The notes beneath the pieces are model-generated. The model was not told where the DNA came from. It was given only the letters and a program-made list of their open reading frames with translations, and searched no databases. The position numbers were made by a program, and so were the translations under genes. A DNA stretch of 24,767 nucleotides from assembly GCF_003334785.1 (NCBI RefSeq), contig NZ_QOWV01000030.1. One strand, given 5' to 3'. Positions within the stretch are counted from its first letter, which is position 1. Each line of letters begins with the position of its first letter. Below are positions 11,065 through 15,551 of the stretch, in pieces. The stretch is from Escherichia coli (GTDB taxonomy: Bacteria; Pseudomonadota; Gammaproteobacteria; Enterobacterales; Enterobacteriaceae).

Positions 11065-12489
11065 ATGCAACATAAGTTACTGATTAACGGAGAACTGGTT
11101 AGCGGCGAAGGGGAAAAACAGCCTGTCTATAATCCGGCAACGGGGGACGTTTTACTGGAAATTGCCGAGGCATCCGCAGAGCAGGTCGATGCTGCTGTGC
11201 GCGCGGCAGATGCAGCATTTGCCGAATGGGGGCAAACCACGCCGAAAGTGCGTGCGGAATGTCTGCTGAAACTGGCTGATGTTATCGAAGAAAATGGTCA
11301 GGTTTTTGCCGAACTGGAGTCCCGTAATTGTGGCAAACCGCTGCATAGTGCGTTCAATGATGAAATCCCGGCGATTGTCGATGTTTTTCGCTTTTTCGCG
11401 GGTGCGGCGCGCTGTCTGAATGGTCTGGCGGCAGGTGAATATCTTGAAGGTCATACTTCGATGATCCGTCGCGATCCGTTGGGGGTCGTGGCTTCTATCG
11501 CACCGTGGAATTATCCGCTGATGATGGCCGCGTGGAAACTTGCTCCGGCGCTGGCGGCAGGGAACTGCGTAGTGCTTAAACCATCAGAAATTACCCCGCT
11601 GACCGCGTTGAAGTTGGCAGAGCTGGCGAAAGATATCTTCCCGGCAGGCGTGATTAACATACTGTTTGGCAGAGGCAAAACGGTGGGTGATCCGCTGACC
11701 GGTCATCCCAAAGTGCGGATGGTGTCGCTGACGGGCTCTATCGCCACCGGCGAGCACATCATCAGCCATACCGCGTCGTCCATTAAGCGTACTCATATGG
11801 AACTTGGTGGCAAAGCGCCAGTGATTGTTTTTGATGATGCGGATATTGAAGCAGTGGTCGAAGGTGTACGTACATTTGGCTATTACAATGCTGGACAGGA
11901 TTGTACTGCGGCTTGTCGGATCTACGCGCAAAAAGGCATTTACGATACGCTGGTGGAAAAACTGGGTGCTGCGGTGGCAACGTTAAAATCTGGTGCGCCA
12001 GATGACGAGTCTACGGAGCTTGGACCTTTAAGCTCGCTGGCGCATCTCGAACGCGTCAGCAAGGCAGTAGAAGAGGCGAAAGCGACAGGGCACATCAAAG
12101 TGATCACTGGCGGTGAAAAGCGCAAGGGTAATGGCTATTACTATGCGCCGACGCTGCTGGCTGGCGCATTACAGGACGATGCCATCGTGCAAAAAGAGGT
12201 ATTTGGTCCAGTAGTGAGTGTTACGCCCTTCGACAACGAAGAACAGGTGGTGAACTGGGCGAATGACAGCCAGTACGGACTTGCATCTTCGGTATGGACG
12301 AAAGATGTGGGCAGGGCGCATCGCGTCAGCGCACGGCTGCAATATGGTTGTACCTGGGTCAATACCCATTTCATGCTGGTAAGTGAAATGCCGCACGGTG
12401 GGCAGAAACTTTCTGGTTACGGCAAGGATATGTCACTTTATGGGCTGGAGGATTACACCGTCGTCCGCCACGTCATGGTTAAACATTAA
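11065..12489 (+). CDS. patD: NAD-dependent gamma-aminobutyraldehyde (4-aminobutanal) dehydrogenase, 474 aa
   Basis: Aldehyde dehydrogenase superfamily hallmarks: catalytic Glu in MELGGKAP and catalytic Cys in GQDCTAACR. Sits last in the ydcSTUV cluster. Confidence 0.9.
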
Positions 12490-12531
12490 GGATAATATTG
12501 CAGATCGTAAGAGTATGAGATGATCTTGCGT

Positions 12532-12560
12532 ACTGTCAGAGCACTGATTTCTCTGACAGT
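12532..12560. terminator. Perfect 10 bp inverted repeat (ACTGTCAGAG / CTCTGACAGT, 9 nt loop) between convergent patD and yncL; possible bidirectional terminator or RNA stability element
   Basis: Stem is visible directly in the sequence at 12532-12541 and 12551-12560. No U-tract follows on either strand, so function as an intrinsic terminator is uncertain. Confidence 0.35.
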
Positions 12561-12585
12561 ACGTGCTGCGTGCAAAATCACTACA

Positions 12586-12681
12586 TCAAATAAACCAGCC
12601 AAATCTCATAGAGATAAGAGTAAACAAACCAACAGCAGCAAAGAAATTTATCAGTACTACAGTTCTACTGGAAACATTCAT
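12586..12681 (-). CDS. yncL: Small membrane protein YncL, 31 aa
   Basis: Absent from the ORF track (too short). Minus-strand translation: MNVSSRTVVLINFFAAVGLFTLISMRFGWFI, stop TGA. GGTGG Shine-Dalgarno 5 nt upstream. A single predicted TM helix. Confidence 0.75.
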   Translation of the reverse strand: MNVSSRTVVLINFFAAVGLFTLISMRFGWFI

Positions 12682-12875
12682 TTTTGCCACCTTTTATCAT
12701 TGCCCCTATGTGTATAGTACGGGTTAAGAAAATCCGCAATAATACTCATTCTGAAGATGGATAAGGGCAAGTTGCTGTTTGATGATTTTTTCTCAAACTG
12801 GTGAAAAAACTTGATGTACGTCAAAAAATGACGCATATTTGCGCGCGTTTTATTCATCTGGTTGGACGCCCGTAC

Positions 12876-13049
12876 ATGTCTCTCTATCAACACATGCTTG
12901 TTTTTTATGCGGTTATGGCAGCAATCGCATTTCTTATCACCTGGTTTCTTTCTCACGATAAGAAACGCATCCGTTTCTTAAGCGCCTTTCTGGTGGGGGC
13001 AACATGGCCGATGAGTTTCCCGGTGGCGCTGTTGTTTTCACTGTTTTAA
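12876..13049 (+). CDS. ortT: Orphan small membrane toxin OrtT (YdcX), 57 aa
   Basis: Track ORF 12801..13049 (82 aa) was trimmed to the internal ATG at 12876, giving MSLYQHMLVFYAVMAAIAFLITWFLSHDKKRIRFLSAFLVGATWPMSFPVALLFSLF, a two-helix hydrophobic peptide typical of membrane-damaging toxins. No adjacent antitoxin gene is evident. Confidence 0.78.
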   Translation: MSLYQHMLVFYAVMAAIAFLITWFLSHDKKRIRFLSAFLVGATWPMSFPVALLFSLF

Positions 13050-13134
13050 ATCTTACTCACTGGCTTGACGGCACCACGCAGACTTATATCATTTGGATGA
13101 ATCGATAAATTTCACAAGTGGCTAAGGAGAAAGT

Positions 13135-13368
13135 ATGTCGCATCTGGATGAAGTCATCGCGCGCGTGGATGCCGCGATTGAAGAGAGCGTCATTGCCCAT
13201 ATGAACGAATTATTAATCGCCCTGAGCGATGACGCGGAGTTAAGTCGGGAAGATCGCTACACCCAGCAGCAACGTCTGCGCACAGCGATCGCCCATCACG
13301 GTCGCAAGCATAAAGAAGATATGGAAGCGCGCCACGAACAGTTAACCAAAGGCGGCACCATCCTCTGA
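13135..13368 (+). CDS. ydcY: Small cytoplasmic protein YdcY, 77 aa
   Basis: AGGAG ribosome-binding site 7 nt upstream. Hydrophilic and charged. Confidence 0.82.
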   Translation: MSHLDEVIARVDAAIEESVIAHMNELLIALSDDAELSREDRYTQQQRLRTAIAHHGRKHKEDMEARHEQLTKGGTIL

Positions 13369-13818
13369 TTAAAATGAGCGTCTGGCTACCAACCAGGCGC
13401 CAACCACAAGTAAAATTGCGCCACAAATTGGGCCGAACAACGCCCGTAGTGGTACGCCATGACTGCGGAAGATATCCAGCATCAGACCGCCAATCAGCTG
13501 ACTGGCGACCAGTACAGCAATAGTTGTCGCCGCTCCCACATTCTGATATCCGCTGATACTGGCGAAGACAAAAAACGATCCCAGCAAGCCAGGTATAAGT
13601 GTCCACCAGCGCACGCTGGACACCAGTTCGCCAAACCCCGCCATGCCTTGTTTAAACCATAAAATAGAAACAAAGAGCACAATCCCCACCAGTGAGTTCA
13701 GCAACATGGCGATGAGAATGGTAGAGGAGGTCTGGGTGATGCGCACCATCAGCGTGTTCTGGACAACCAGACCAATTCCGGCGGCAATCAAAAAAGCAAG
13801 GGTGAGCGACTGATTCAT
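13369..13818 (-). CDS. ydcZ: Inner-membrane protein YdcZ (DMT-superfamily-like small permease), 149 aa
   Basis: Hydrophobic four-TM protein. Its stop codon abuts the ydcY stop (TGATTA), and its start overlaps the mnaT stop in an ATGA arrangement. Confidence 0.85.
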   Translation of the reverse strand: MNQSLTLAFLIAAGIGLVVQNTLMVRITQTSSTILIAMLLNSLVGIVLFVSILWFKQGMAGFGELVSSVRWWTLIPGLLGSFFVFASISGYQNVGAATTIAVLVASQLIGGLMLDIFRSHGVPLRALFGPICGAILLVVGAWLVARRSF

Positions 13819-14333
13819 CCAATCGCGTCCGGTTCAGTGCGCTCGTCGAGTTGCAACTGCATAAATGTCAGATCCAGCCAACGACCAAATTTAGTGCCTA
13901 CCTGCGGCATTTGCGCGGTGACGACAAATCCCAGCGACTGGTGGAGATGCAGCGAGGCCTGATTTTGCGATTCGATCCCGGCGACCATGACATGCTTCCC
14001 GCAATCCCGCGCTTCATCAATCAATCGGCTTAACAATTTACGCCCCAGACCTTTGCCCTGATGATCGGGATGGACATAAACCGAATGTTCCACGGTATGG
14101 CGAAAACCATCGAAACTACGCCAGTCGCCAAACGAGGCATATCCCGTCACTACGCCGTTTTCCTCGCTCACCAGCACTGGATAACCTGCTAAAGTCCGCG
14201 CTTCAAACCAGGCAATGCGGTTATCAGCATCCACCGTTTGGTCATTCCAGATAGCCGCCGTATACAACACGGCGTGGTTATAAATTTCCGCAATGGCAGC
14301 ACAGTCGGCTTTGCGGGCAAAACGGATGGACAT
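13815..14333 (-). CDS. mnaT: GNAT-family L-amino acid (methionine derivative) N-acyltransferase MnaT (YncA), 172 aa
   Basis: Track ORF 13815..14567 is over-extended. The start was placed at the internal ATG (plus-strand cat at 14331-14333), giving MSIRFARKADCAAIAEIYNHAV.... GNAT acetyl-CoA motif around HQGKGLGRKLL. Confidence 0.85.
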   Translation of the reverse strand: MSIRFARKADCAAIAEIYNHAVLYTAAIWNDQTVDADNRIAWFEARTLAGYPVLVSEENGVVTGYASFGDWRSFDGFRHTVEHSVYVHPDHQGKGLGRKLLSRLIDEARDCGKHVMVAGIESQNQASLHLHQSLGFVVTAQMPQVGTKFGRWLDLTFMQLQLDERTEPDAIG

Positions 14334-14513
14334 GTCTGGCCTCAATAAAATAATGATGATGATGTTATCAATACTATCGAAAACAGCCCGAAGCAACGGA
14401 TTCCTCGATGAAATTATTGCGTGTTGCAGAGGGGATGTGACGGCTGCAAACAAAACCAATCCCGTGAGCCTGCTACTATTGATGGATTCATGCCAAAAGC
14501 ACAGGAGAGCATT

Positions 14514-15551
14514 ATGGGGCAACAAAAGCAGCGTAATCGACGTTGGGTTCTGGCCTCGCGTCCACATGGCGCACCTGTTCCGGAGAATTTCCGTCTTGAA
14601 GAAGATGATGTCGCCACACCGGGTGAAGGACAGGTGTTACTGCGCACAGTTTATTTGTCCCTGGACCCGTATATGCGTGGACGTATGAGCGATGAGCCAT
14701 CTTATTCACCGCCTGTTGATATTGGCGGCGTGATGGTCGGCGGTACGGTGAGCCGTGTCGTGGAGTCGAATCATCCTGATTATCAGTCTGGCGACTGGGT
14801 GCTGGGCTACAGTGGATGGCAAGACTATGACATATCCAGTGGTGATGATCTGGTGAAACTTGGCGATCATCCGCAAAATCCATCGTGGTCGCTGGGTGTG
14901 CTAGGGATGCCAGGCTTTACCGCTTATATGGGCCTACTGGATATCGGTCAGCCTAAAGAGGGCGAAACGTTGGTGGTAGCTGCGGCGACAGGACCAGTGG
15001 GGGCGACGGTGGGGCAAATCGGCAAACTTAAAGGTTGCAGAGTGGTGGGGGTAGCCGGTGGCGCGGAAAAATGCCGCCATGCTACCGAGGTGTTAGGCTT
15101 CGATGTTTGTCTTGATCACCACGCGGATGATTTTGCCGAACAACTGGCGAAAGCGTGCCCAAAAGGTATTGATATCTATTATGAAAACGTGGGCGGTAAG
15201 GTATTCGATGCGGTGCTACCGTTACTTAATACATCTGCGCGCATTCCCGTCTGCGGATTAGTGAGCAGCTATAACGCTACAGAGCTACCACCCGGTCCGG
15301 ATCGTTTACCTCTGTTGATGGCTACAGTGCTGAAAAAACGTATTCGCTTGCAAGGTTTTATTATCGCTCAGGATTATGGTCACCGCATCCATGAGTTTCA
15401 GAGGGAGATGGGGCAATGGGTGAAAGAGGATAAAATCCACTACCGCGAAGAAATTACTGACGGTTTAGAGAATGCGCCACAGACGTTTATCGGCCTGCTG
15501 AAGGGTAAAAACTTCGGCAAAGTGGTGATCCGCGTGGCGGGTGATGATTAA
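14514..15551 (+). CDS. curA: NADPH-dependent curcumin/dihydrocurcumin reductase (MDR-superfamily enoate reductase), 345 aa
   Basis: Track ORF starts at 14421; the start was placed at the ATG at 14514 (MGQQKQRNRRWVLASRPHG...), which has an AGGAG ribosome-binding site 7 nt upstream. Rossmann motif AAATGPVGATVGQ. Confidence 0.88.
   Translation: MGQQKQRNRRWVLASRPHGAPVPENFRLEEDDVATPGEGQVLLRTVYLSLDPYMRGRMSDEPSYSPPVDIGGVMVGGTVSRVVESNHPDYQSGDWVLGYSGWQDYDISSGDDLVKLGDHPQNPSWSLGVLGMPGFTAYMGLLDIGQPKEGETLVVAAATGPVGATVGQIGKLKGCRVVGVAGGAEKCRHATEVLGFDVCLDHHADDFAEQLAKACPKGIDIYYENVGGKVFDAVLPLLNTSARIPVCGLVSSYNATELPPGPDRLPLLMATVLKKRIRLQGFIIAQDYGHRIHEFQREMGQWVKEDKIHYREEITDGLENAPQTFIGLLKGKNFGKVVIRVAGDD

Follow-up and report, generated by a model that had tools for sequence, protein, structure and literature searches.

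A ydcY mRNA 3' end embedded in the convergent ydcZ coding sequence, and a conserved mnaT-ydcZ overlap, at two ordinary gene junctions of Escherichia coli

In Escherichia coli, the small gene ydcY runs directly into the transporter gene ydcZ on the opposite strand, with no base between the two stop codons, and the start codon of ydcZ in turn overlaps the mnaT stop codon, mnaT being the gene for a GNAT N-acetyltransferase. This arrangement raises the questions of where and how the ydcY transcript ends, and of what the close packing of mnaT and ydcZ signifies for the proteins that they encode. We analyzed the locus within a window of 24,767 nt (the whole stretch of DNA under study, to which all positions refer unless MG1655 is named). 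Its sequence is K-12-like: over 16,001 positions compared with MG1655 there are 4 differences, all outside the features described here. Of 5426 complete E. coli genomes, 5416 contain the 2-kb region around the locus. Gene boundaries were taken from the sequence and the list of open reading frames, and the RefSeq annotation agrees with them, both for a strain that is identical across the queried 2 kb and for MG1655, where ydcY occupies 1517648-1517881, ydcZ 1517882-1518331, and mnaT 1518328-1518846. The two features to which the sequence-only reading had drawn attention, i.e., the directly adjacent stops of ydcY and ydcZ and the ATGA overlap of the ydcZ start with the mnaT stop, proved correct to the base (Table 1). 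At the latter, the plus strand reads TCAT, and the ydcZ ATG (13818-13816) shares two bases with the mnaT TGA (13817-13815).

Table 1. Features of the ydcY/ydcZ/mnaT locus, in positions of the window
Feature	Position	Strand	Basis
Putative sigma-70-like ydcY promoter: TTGACG, 16-nt spacer, TATCAT; 10 of 12 consensus positions	13065-13092	+	Consensus scan, pattern match only
ydcY CDS, 77 aa, DUF2526	13135-13368	+	Pfam PF10735, E = 1.2e-46
ydcY stop codon, TGA	13366-13368	+	Sequence, ORF list, RefSeq
Junction TGA|TTA: ydcY TGA abuts the opposite-strand ydcZ TAA, zero spacer	13366-13371	both	Sequence, ORF list, RefSeq
Weak terminator-like candidate for the mnaT-ydcZ transcript: palindrome, then UCAUUUUAAUCA across both stops	13366-13402	-	Sequence, fold
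ydcZ CDS, 149 aa, half-size DMT transporter (DMT_YdcZ / DUF606)	13369-13818	-	Pfam PF04657
ydcZ stop codon, TAA	13369-13371	-	Sequence, ORF list, RefSeq
Stem-loop in ydcY-sense RNA, within ydcZ codons 139-148	13375-13402	+	Folding
Rare AGA codon, YdcZ Arg146	13381-13383	-	Usage in 80 species
Published steady-state ydcY mRNA 3' end (MG1655 1517918, 'primary ydcY / antisense ydcZ')	13405	+	Term-seq, Adams et al. 2021
C-rich, G-poor tract antisense to ydcZ, C/G 1.8-2.3, ending at the Rho peak	13570-13689	+	Composition
mnaT (yncA) CDS, 172 aa, GNAT N-acetyltransferase	13815-14333	-	ORF list, RefSeq
ATGA, ydcZ start over mnaT stop	13815-13818	-	Sequence, ORF list, RefSeq
Invariant CCGGA at -14 to -10 of the ydcZ ATG, from the Pro-Asp codons of the MnaT tail	13828-13832	-	80 species

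The zero spacer was considered as a statistical exception and rejected as such, since the 116 kb of MG1655 annotation that surround the locus contain 18 convergent pairs, five of which are spaced by 0 nt or less: ydcY/ydcZ (0), pptA/yddH (-4), rimL/ydcK (-9), yncP/hokB (-23), and ydcD/yncO (-86). Same-strand overlaps of 4 nt are likewise frequent in these 116 kb (narV/narW, narY/narZ, ddpC/ddpD, ddpB/ddpC, and tehA/tehB). Both junctions are ordinary E. coli gene junctions, a new instance of known mechanisms, and neither alters the present understanding of termination or operon organization. Our best explanation of the locus, to which we give a probability of about 0.7 as a whole, joins a model for the ydcY 3' end, an mnaT-ydcZ operon, and a function for the gene pair.

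The ydcY mRNA has its mapped 3' end inside ydcZ. In the published Term-seq data, 1517918(+) appears three times as a ydcY 3' end, in a file that covers three growth conditions (Adams et al. 2021, PMC7815308). Comparison of the window with MG1655 verified that this base corresponds to window position 13405, which is 37 nt into the ydcZ ORF and 3 nt past the hairpin at 13375-13402. The claim that abutting stops leave no room for terminators is accurate for the intergenic space, of which there is none, but overlooks a 3'-end hairpin that is embedded in the ydcZ CDS. With a zero spacer between the genes, it is thus the final codons of ydcZ that carry the ydcY 3'-end signal; in this abutting convergent pair, the 'missing' terminator turns out to reside in the coding sequence of the neighbor.

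Downstream of this end, a region of Rho termination peaks at MG1655 1518196(+), or window position 13683, with a Rho score of 15.8 (p = 2.2e-25), a regional value that derives from 800-nt windows and does not refer to the 3' end itself; reads upstream and downstream numbered 164 and 9 without bicyclomycin, and 213 and 185 with it (PMC7815308). Rho stops the read-through, removing approximately 95% of it, so that under normal conditions the ydcY transcript invades antisense ydcZ for a short distance only. Of the expectation that the two transcripts must overlap and could interfere, Term-seq thus bears out the entry of the ydcY mRNA into ydcZ, by 37 nt, whereas a reciprocal overlap and mutual interference would be hypothetical. 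For the minus strand, neither a 3' end of the mnaT-ydcZ transcript nor a Rho region is listed near the locus in the supplements of the same study (Adams et al. 2021, PMC7815308). The C/G ratio of the plus strand lies between 1.3 and 2.3 across most of 13370-13689, and is about 1.05 at 13410-13529. We consider it most likely that RNA polymerase reads past the hairpin into the region antisense to ydcZ, where Rho would end ydcY-sense transcription within about 300 nt, after the C-rich tract at 13570-13689. We infer that 3'-5' exonucleases then trim the ydcY RNA back to the hairpin, which would protect it from further degradation.

Alternatively, the ydcY 3' end might be produced by termination directly at the hairpin, without Rho termination and trimming, either because the hairpin is a non-canonical intrinsic terminator or because converging polymerases collide there and terminate bidirectionally (the model of Ju et al. 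2019). The hairpin does sit at a convergent junction, as that model demands, and the plus strand has an A-rich run ahead of the stem, the minus strand a short U-run behind it. However, the sequence that follows the plus-strand stem, ACCACAAGUA, contains no U-tract; further, read-through at this locus is strongly Rho-dependent, whereas the bidirectional class is described as Rho-independent, and for none of the three conditions is a minus-strand 3' end listed at the junction. On this evidence, we judge direct termination very unlikely.

The two strands also differ in how they fold. The ydcY-sense stem-loop contains one G-U pair and folds at -14.3 kcal/mol (z = -2.95), as against -12.9 kcal/mol (z = -0.74) for the ydcZ sense, in which the stem carries a C-A mismatch. 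Both fall short of a canonical intrinsic terminator, the plus strand through its missing U-tract, and the minus strand through its mismatched, statistically unremarkable stem and its tail, UCAUUUUA. For these same reasons, the hairpin was rejected as a bidirectional intrinsic terminator, and a terminator scan called neither strand at the ydcY/ydcZ junction. Elsewhere, the generic terminator scan returned one weak minus-strand site inside ydcZ (13593-13580), with counts at the level of shuffled sequence. A scan of 12400-14700 against Rfam (both strands, E ≤ 1) found nothing, and the junction therefore holds no known RNA family.

Conservation was assessed in a sample of 80 Enterobacteriaceae species. 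Of the 76 species loci with ydcY, 52 have a gap of -4 to 8 nt between the ydcY and ydcZ stops. The hairpin embedded in these 52 loci (gap ≤8 nt) folds at a median of -18.7 kcal/mol, and 69% of them beat a synonymous-codon null at P ≤ 0.05. The excess over this null is found in the ydcY sense only (median z of -2.3 vs -1.4). In the 20 loci in which a spacer of 9-200 nt separates the genes, the hairpin median is -8.3 kcal/mol (Mann-Whitney p = 6e-6 relative to the tight loci), a contrast that represents few independent events. The difference persists outside Citrobacter, where the median is -18.4 kcal/mol for 51 tight loci and four spacer loci range from -5.3 to -14.0 kcal/mol (p = 0.002), and the two short-gap Citrobacter loci retain a hairpin of -20.8 kcal/mol. 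The spacers bear strong palindromes of their own, and the hairpin in ydcZ is weaker in five separate lineages that gained such a spacer palindrome. This pattern suggests that, where the genes abut, the hairpin is under selection for its role at the ydcY 3' end.

A competing reading attributes the palindrome to the conserved protein sequence (G-A-W-L-V-A-R-R) and to codon ancestry; it would then be a by-product, with no selected role for ydcY, and exonucleases would halt at whatever structure is present. Several observations agree with this reading. The covariation test yielded zero compensatory double changes, variation in the stem only breaking pairs, and structural conservation can therefore not be claimed from covariation. 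The columns of the 3' arm are almost invariant, and the synonymous-shuffle test, applied to E. coli by itself, gives a marginal result (P = 0.06). The codon for Arg146 points in both directions. Its first two bases are paired within the stem, and its third forms the G-U pair of the ydcY sense; it is AGA in 48 of the 80 species, and AGA or AGG in 54 (68%), although, pooled over the same loci, AGA is used at 3.7% and AGA plus AGG at 7.7%. Yet 17 of 19 Citrobacter loci retain AGA despite a degraded hairpin; because of this retention, the rare codon may in part reflect ancestry, and not selection for pairing. Against a by-product stand the strand-specific excess over the synonymous-codon null, the weakening of the hairpin in five lineages, the enrichment of the rare arginine codons, and the position of the mapped 3' end, 3 nt past the stem. 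We consider the by-product reading unlikely, and favor selection on the hairpin as part of the ydcY 3' end.

The location of the ydcY hairpin within ydcZ has a practical consequence, as a deletion of ydcZ would break it. Deletions of the Keio design reportedly retain only the last 21 nt of the gene, here 13369-13389. Published phenotypes of ydcZ knockouts, such as paraquat hypersensitivity, may consequently be confounded by effects on ydcY.

At the other end of ydcZ, the start-stop overlap with mnaT is conserved throughout the sample: all 80 species have it, 65 of them at -4 nt and 15 at -1 nt. The Pro codon in the MnaT tail, which contributes to the invariant CCGGA upstream of the ydcZ start, is CCG in 80 of 80 species, as compared with a pooled CCG usage of 54%. 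Within this motif, GGA (-12 to -10, with a spacing of 9 nt) is a possible weak Shine-Dalgarno element. The proposal of a translationally coupled mnaT-ydcZ operon fits an overlap that is kept in all 80 species and in five distant clusters; from such conservation, which supports a co-translated operon, we would predict that mnaT and ydcZ are transcribed together, that ydcZ translation begins on the mnaT stop codon, and that ribosomes finishing MnaT go on to make YdcZ.

The first homolog search returned relatives of at least 81% identity only, and the more distant ones were reached through a library clustered at 50%. A GNAT gene lies immediately upstream of the genes for YdcZ homologs of 51, 49, 43, 39, and 38% identity, in the ATGA arrangement, which is recorded in distant loci L083, L086, L092, and L094. 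These clusters have a GC content of 61-66% (in the contigs whose DNA was examined) and differing neighbors, and the adjacent GNATs have full-length identities to MnaT of 56% and 42%. Conversely, of seven distant YdcZ clusters that were informative, two are without an adjacent co-oriented GNAT. This distribution would make mnaT-ydcZ an old two-gene module.

YdcZ itself matches PF04657 with E = 9.5e-24 (residues 6-143, model positions 2-140 of 140), and a rough hydropathy segmentation gives it five hydrophobic segments, with Lys and Arg split about 4 vs 3. No NCBIfam model matched either YdcY or YdcZ, and a search of the PDB found no sequence relative of YdcZ. MnaT matches PDB 3DR6 'yncA' (E = 2e-100) and PA4866 (2BL1/2J8M; E = 2.3e-61). 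It also aligns over the full length with the NCBIfam models for ArsN1 and phosphinothricin acetyltransferase, but below their curated cut-offs (127 vs 210, 97.6 vs 170, and 90.2 vs 300 bits), and thus belongs to a sister group and is not one of those equivalogs. In work that Hentchel and Escalante-Semerena are said to have reported in 2015, Salmonella MddA acetylates methionine sulfoximine as well as methionine sulfone. A Pseudomonas homolog also acetylates methionine sulfoximine or sulfone. The MddA/PA4866-type systems described so far do not, to our knowledge, include a YdcZ transporter as a fixed partner, and our literature search found no experiment that links ydcZ to MnaT substrates.

We postulate that MnaT acetylates toxic analogs of methionine or glutamate, e.g., methionine sulfoximine and methionine sulfone, and that YdcZ, which is probably a half-size DMT working as a homodimer, most likely carries either the substrate or its acetylated form across the inner membrane. 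Such an acetylate-then-export role, of the kind that had been proposed for the pair as a detoxification system, is plausible from gene adjacency. The deep conservation of the pair offers a functional lead for DUF606, an uncharacterized transporter family.

The two genes might also be transcribed together through genome compaction only, with YdcZ carrying an unrelated cargo, for instance cationic drugs like paraquat. In a published screen of transporter knockouts, the strain without ydcZ was the one most sensitive to paraquat; two distant YdcZ clusters have no adjacent co-oriented GNAT; homologs of MnaT such as P. aeruginosa PA4866 occur in other gene contexts; and enzymes of the MnaT family act alone in other genomes. 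Nevertheless, both adjacency and ATGA persist down to 38% identity for YdcZ and 42% for MnaT in unrelated, high-GC contexts, and the mnaT knockout is also reported to be hypersensitive to blue light, an oxidative stress (in a single screen). The paraquat phenotype, moreover, may be confounded, since deletion of ydcZ would remove half of the ydcY 3' hairpin. Compaction without shared function is a possibility that we find doubtful, and we retain the functional pairing of MnaT and YdcZ as the preferred account.

A more far-reaching reading, which we offer tentatively and do not expect to hold in all its parts, would combine the two junctions. In it, (i) MnaT-YdcZ would be an ancient and widespread 'acetylate and export' module, often paired with a divergent XRE-cupin regulator; (ii) its targets would be glutamine-synthetase-poisoning or oxidized methionine analogs, and YdcZ, a half-size DMT acting as a homodimer, would export the N-acetylated products; and (iii) in Enterobacteriaceae, encoding the ydcY 3'-end hairpin would also constrain the tail of ydcZ, down to the rare AGA codon. 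Were this combination true, standard ydcZ deletions would also perturb ydcY.

The ydcY 3' end resembles a class of Rho-dependent transcript ends that are precise, directly follow protective stem-loops, and show low U and an excess of C over G downstream, and that include ends within downstream coding regions (Dar and Sorek 2018, PMC6061677). Like these, it lies 3 nt past a stable stem-loop and inside the CDS of the next gene, its stem is not followed by a U-tract, C exceeds G downstream, and read-through rises when Rho is inhibited (by bicyclomycin, as judged from the regional score). Unlike these, its stem is encoded antisense to the last codons of the convergent ydcZ, and the choice of codons in ydcZ, including the rare AGA, would therefore be constrained; a literature search found no discussion of such an antisense-encoded stem for this locus. 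Overlapping bidirectional terminators at convergent pairs are described as Rho-independent, with 3' ends on both strands (Wang et al., preprint, 10.1101/2022.10.23.513370). The ydcY/ydcZ junction shares with those of Ju et al. (2019) the convergent arrangement and the stem-loop, but it is Rho-dependent, and only a plus-strand end is listed. With 3' overlaps of the excludon type (PMC7154746; ExcludonFinder, PMC12288877) it has in common the complementarity between the ydcY mRNA and the final 37 nt of the ydcZ ORF. In contrast to excludons, this overlap is short, with Rho removing about 95% of the read-through.

The mnaT-ydcZ side of the locus has familiar counterparts as well. Stop/start overlaps of the form ATGA or TGATG couple translation in bacterial operons, and the mnaT-ydcZ pair, with its 4-nt same-strand overlap (-4 or -1 nt across 80 of 80 species) and its putative weak Shine-Dalgarno element, appears to be of this kind. 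MnaT, by its close full-length sequence relation, belongs with the detoxifying N-acetyltransferases of the MddA (YncA)/PA4866/phosphinothricin acetyltransferase/ArsN1 group. According to Lolkema et al. (2008), as summarized in PMC3962082, DUF606 includes proteins that are encoded by single genes and are probably dual-topology homodimers. YdcZ, which has a full-length Pfam match, approximately 150 amino acids, and five hydrophobic segments, and is encoded by a single gene, resembles the half-size transporters of the DUF606 / DMT_YdcZ family.

The two junctions described by the sequence-only reading, abutting ydcY and ydcZ stop codons and an ATGA shared by the mnaT stop and the ydcZ start, were exact to the base when checked against the sequence and ORF list. 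The locus is flanked upstream by ortT and yncL and, past mnaT, by curA and mcbR. In comparison with K-12 MG1655 (whose coordinates are window coordinates plus 1,504,513), four of 16,001 bases differed (window 10172, 12058, 12817 and 12862, two of these in the ortT region), none of them in the junctions, and 5416 of 5426 complete E. coli genomes matched the surrounding 2-kb region at 95-100% identity. Natural variants of the locus occur in strains H4 (NZ_CP091029.1), H10, H11 and H12 (NZ_CP167126.1). In STEC384, an IS3-family insertion breaks ydcZ into two pieces annotated 'DMT family transporter'; in some strains the match ends at query position 1882 of 2001, with curA outside it and a GntR regulator beside mnaT; and in one strain the match reaches only mid-ydcZ, leaving mnaT and the 5' half of ydcZ uncovered.

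Features of the ydcY-ydcZ-mnaT locus (window coordinates) and of distant relatives (L-numbers, loci from other genomes bearing ydcZ homologues)
Feature	Location	Strand	Source
ydcY	13135-13368	+	RefSeq annotation
ydcY stop TGA	13366-13368	+	sequence and ORF list
ydcZ stop TAA (its complement)	13369-13371	-	sequence and ORF list
ydcZ	13369-13818	-	RefSeq annotation
stem-loop (ydcY sense)	13375-13402	+	folding
ATGA, ydcZ ATG and mnaT TGA with two bases in common	13815-13818	-	sequence and ORF list
mnaT	13815-14333	-	RefSeq annotation
XRE-type regulator, distant high-GC relatives	L086:76-639, L089:2387-2953, L091:1014-1589, L092:1364-1981, L094:550-1161 and a JGI contig		

The ydcY transcript ends inside antisense ydcZ, immediately after a hairpin, and a region of Rho-dependent termination peaks further downstream. 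A generic terminator scan detected no intrinsic terminator at the ydcY/ydcZ junction. The ydcY-sense stem-loop folds at -14.3 kcal/mol (z = -2.95; matched by 1 of 200 dinucleotide shuffles) and is followed by ACCACAAG, with no U-tract. One of the 3' ends published in the Term-seq data of Adams et al. (2021, eLife, PMC7815308, supplementary file 1) falls at MG1655 1517918(+), window 13405; it is classed as 'primary: ydcY; antisense: ydcZ' and entered three times in a file covering three growth conditions. This end lies 37 nt past the ydcY stop codon and 3 nt past the stem, within ydcZ codons 138-149. In the bicyclomycin experiment of the same study, a Rho termination region peaks at 1518196(+), window 13683, antisense in ydcZ: reads upstream and downstream numbered 164 and 9 without the drug and 213 and 185 with it (Rho score 15.8, p = 2.2e-25). 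Directly ahead of this peak, at 13570-13689, the plus-strand C/G ratio climbs to 1.8-2.3.

Rho-dependent transcripts have been reported to carry precise steady-state ends right after stem-loops lacking a U-tract, also within downstream coding regions and with C exceeding G downstream; these stem-loops guard against PNPase and RNase II (Dar and Sorek 2018, PMC6061677). The ydcY end fits this pattern in its position after a stem-loop and inside a coding region, its missing U-tract and its excess of C over G. Because of this match, we take the ydcY end to result from Rho termination within antisense ydcZ, after which the RNA would be trimmed back to the hairpin embedded in ydcZ; the 3' end, the hairpin and the dependence on Rho are shown, and the trimming is proposed. 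Rho limits antisense invasion of ydcZ by the ydcY transcript. The earlier expectation that the two transcripts must overlap holds for at least one strand, that of ydcY.

On the minus strand, the published Term-seq and Rho lists (PMC7815308) contain no 3' end or Rho region between 1517200 and 1518399. In the ydcZ sense the palindrome is unremarkable (-12.9 kcal/mol, z = -0.74), a C-A mismatch replacing a G-U pair; together with the ensuing UCAUUUUAAUCA across both stop codons, it is a weak candidate for the end of the mnaT-ydcZ transcript. Two other Term-seq ends lie nearby (Adams et al. 2021): a very strong minus-strand end at 1517039 (window 12526), downstream of yncL and directly past patD, within the perfect palindrome ACGTACTGTCAGAG...CTCTGACAGTACG; and an 'orphan' plus-strand end at 1517357 (window 12844), 32 nt upstream of ortT, with an intrinsic terminator score of 3.2.

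Scanning a single genome from each species yielded 80 Enterobacteriaceae loci (YdcZ 81-99% identity), 76 with a convergent downstream ydcY. Stop-to-stop distance was -4 to 8 nt in 52 of the 76, including Escherichia (0 throughout), Enterobacter, Kosakonia, Klebsiella, Salmonella and others; it was 17-176 nt mostly in Citrobacter, and exceeded 700 nt at four loci. In four Enterobacter species (L028, L030, L031 and L041, positions 4447-4450) the genes overlap by 4 nt, and the shared palindrome, TTAA or CTAG, supplies a stop codon to both strands. Citrobacter spacers consist of strong REP-like palindromes (-20 to -85 kcal/mol) that appear to have been inserted exactly between abutting stops; in L008-L024 they span 36-176 nt from the ydcZ stop (4450) to the ydcY stop (e.g., L023:4451-4626) and hold one to three such palindromes, GCCGGATAAG...CTTATCCGGCCTAC, and the ancestral hairpin within ydcZ is degraded. 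The 44-nt spacer of Kosakonia cowanii contains a canonical terminator.

Hairpin strength in the final 54 nt of ydcZ was compared with a null model in which the protein was fixed and synonymous codons were redrawn. Tight junctions (8 nt or less) gave a median of -18.7 kcal/mol and a median z of -2.3 in the ydcY sense, with P <= 0.05 in 69%, versus -8.3 kcal/mol and z +0.7 at loci with 9-200 nt spacers (Mann-Whitney p = 6e-6), a comparison comprising few independent evolutionary events. The contrast is more than one of Citrobacter against the rest: outside this genus, four lineages with spacers had values between -5.3 and -14.0, compared with a median of -18.4 across 51 tight loci (p = 0.002), and the two short-gap Citrobacter loci retain a -20.8 kcal/mol hairpin. 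Further, 48 of 80 species have the rare AGA at ydcZ codon 146, which is paired in the stem, and 54 have AGA or AGG there (pooled usage at these loci, 3.7% and 7.7%). We regard selection on the embedded hairpin as likely rather than proven, because these contrasts come with caveats: (i) a covariation test across the species loci found no compensatory change in any hairpin pair, (ii) the E. coli sequence alone gave P = 0.06 against the synonymous-codon null, and (iii) of 19 Citrobacter loci in which the rest of the hairpin has decayed, 17 still carry AGA at codon 146.

At the other junction, mnaT immediately precedes ydcZ in all 80 species, overlapping it by 4 nt (ATGA) in 65 and by 1 nt (TGATG or TAATG) in 15, and the ydcZ start codon is invariably ATG. 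The sole purine-rich element ahead of ydcZ is GGA at -12 to -10, possibly a weak Shine-Dalgarno site, inside an invariant CCGGA encoding Pro-Asp in the MnaT tail. All 80 species use CCG for this proline, versus 54% pooled usage, which suggests constraint at the nucleotide level. Full-length homologues in a library clustered at 50% identity reach down to ~30% identity. Among eight clusters whose context was examined, five (51, 49, 43, 39 and 38% identity) have a same-strand GNAT gene directly upstream with a 4-nt overlap, ATGA wherever DNA could be read, on contigs of 61-66% GC versus 50% in the window; two of these GNATs share 56% and 42% full-length identity with MnaT. The remaining three showed a nearby but divergent GNAT, no GNAT, and a contig too short to judge. 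The same overlap and adjacency at such distances argue that mnaT-ydcZ is an old, co-inherited module, overlap included. The proposed translationally coupled operon is well supported by this conservation of pair and overlap, from which we infer both co-transcription and coupling.

Two tandem MnaT-like GNAT genes precede ydcZ at L094:1199-2211, where ATGA at both junctions chains three genes by 4-nt overlaps. In distant high-GC relatives, the GNAT-YdcZ pair or a lone YdcZ is accompanied, at the position that curA and mcbR occupy in E. coli, by a usually divergent regulator of XRE type (HTH_31/HTH_3), in many cases bearing a cupin domain; it may be the module's native regulator.

MnaT is a GNAT protein closest in the PDB to 3DR6 'yncA' (E = 2e-100) and P. 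aeruginosa PA4866 (E = 2e-61); it aligns full-length to ArsN1 and phosphinothricin acetyltransferase models, with scores under their curated cut-offs. Salmonella MddA, of the same enzyme group, is reported to acetylate methionine sulfoximine and methionine sulfone (Hentchel and Escalante-Semerena 2015). YdcY belongs to DUF2526, and YdcZ matches Pfam DMT_YdcZ (DUF606) over its full length, a family with single-gene homodimeric, paired and fused forms according to the account of Lolkema et al. 2008 in PMC3962082. About five hydrophobic segments, with K+R of ~4 versus 3 over the two membrane faces by rough hand calculation, would fit the dual-topology homodimer proposed for single-gene members. 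In the searchable literature, ydcZ appears only as a screen hit. Its knockout showed the highest paraquat sensitivity in a transporter knockout library, and loss of mnaT caused hypersensitivity to blue light; these phenotypes, from one screen each, would agree with a common function against oxidised methionine derivatives. Acetylation-export by MnaT-YdcZ would be a reasonable hypothesis. By design, Keio deletions retain just the last 21 nt of a gene; in a ydcZ deletion of this type the ydcY hairpin would lose its 3' arm, a possible confounder.

Neither arrangement is rare. The surrounding 116 kb of annotated MG1655 sequence has 18 convergent pairs, five of them with a spacing of zero or less (ydcY/ydcZ 0, pptA/yddH -4, rimL/ydcK -9, yncP/hokB -23 and ydcD/yncO -86), and at least five further same-strand pairs overlap by 4 nt. 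The 3' overlaps of pptA/yddH (MG1655 1533282-1533285) and rimL/ydcK (1499469-1499477), both within ~20 kb, would be obvious places to look for comparable hairpins inside a partner gene. The sequence-only reading stands as observation and in part as interpretation; the overlap found on the ydcY strand has a mechanism already described elsewhere, in which a protective hairpin embedded in the coding region is combined with Rho, and the junctions fall entirely within known kinds of system.
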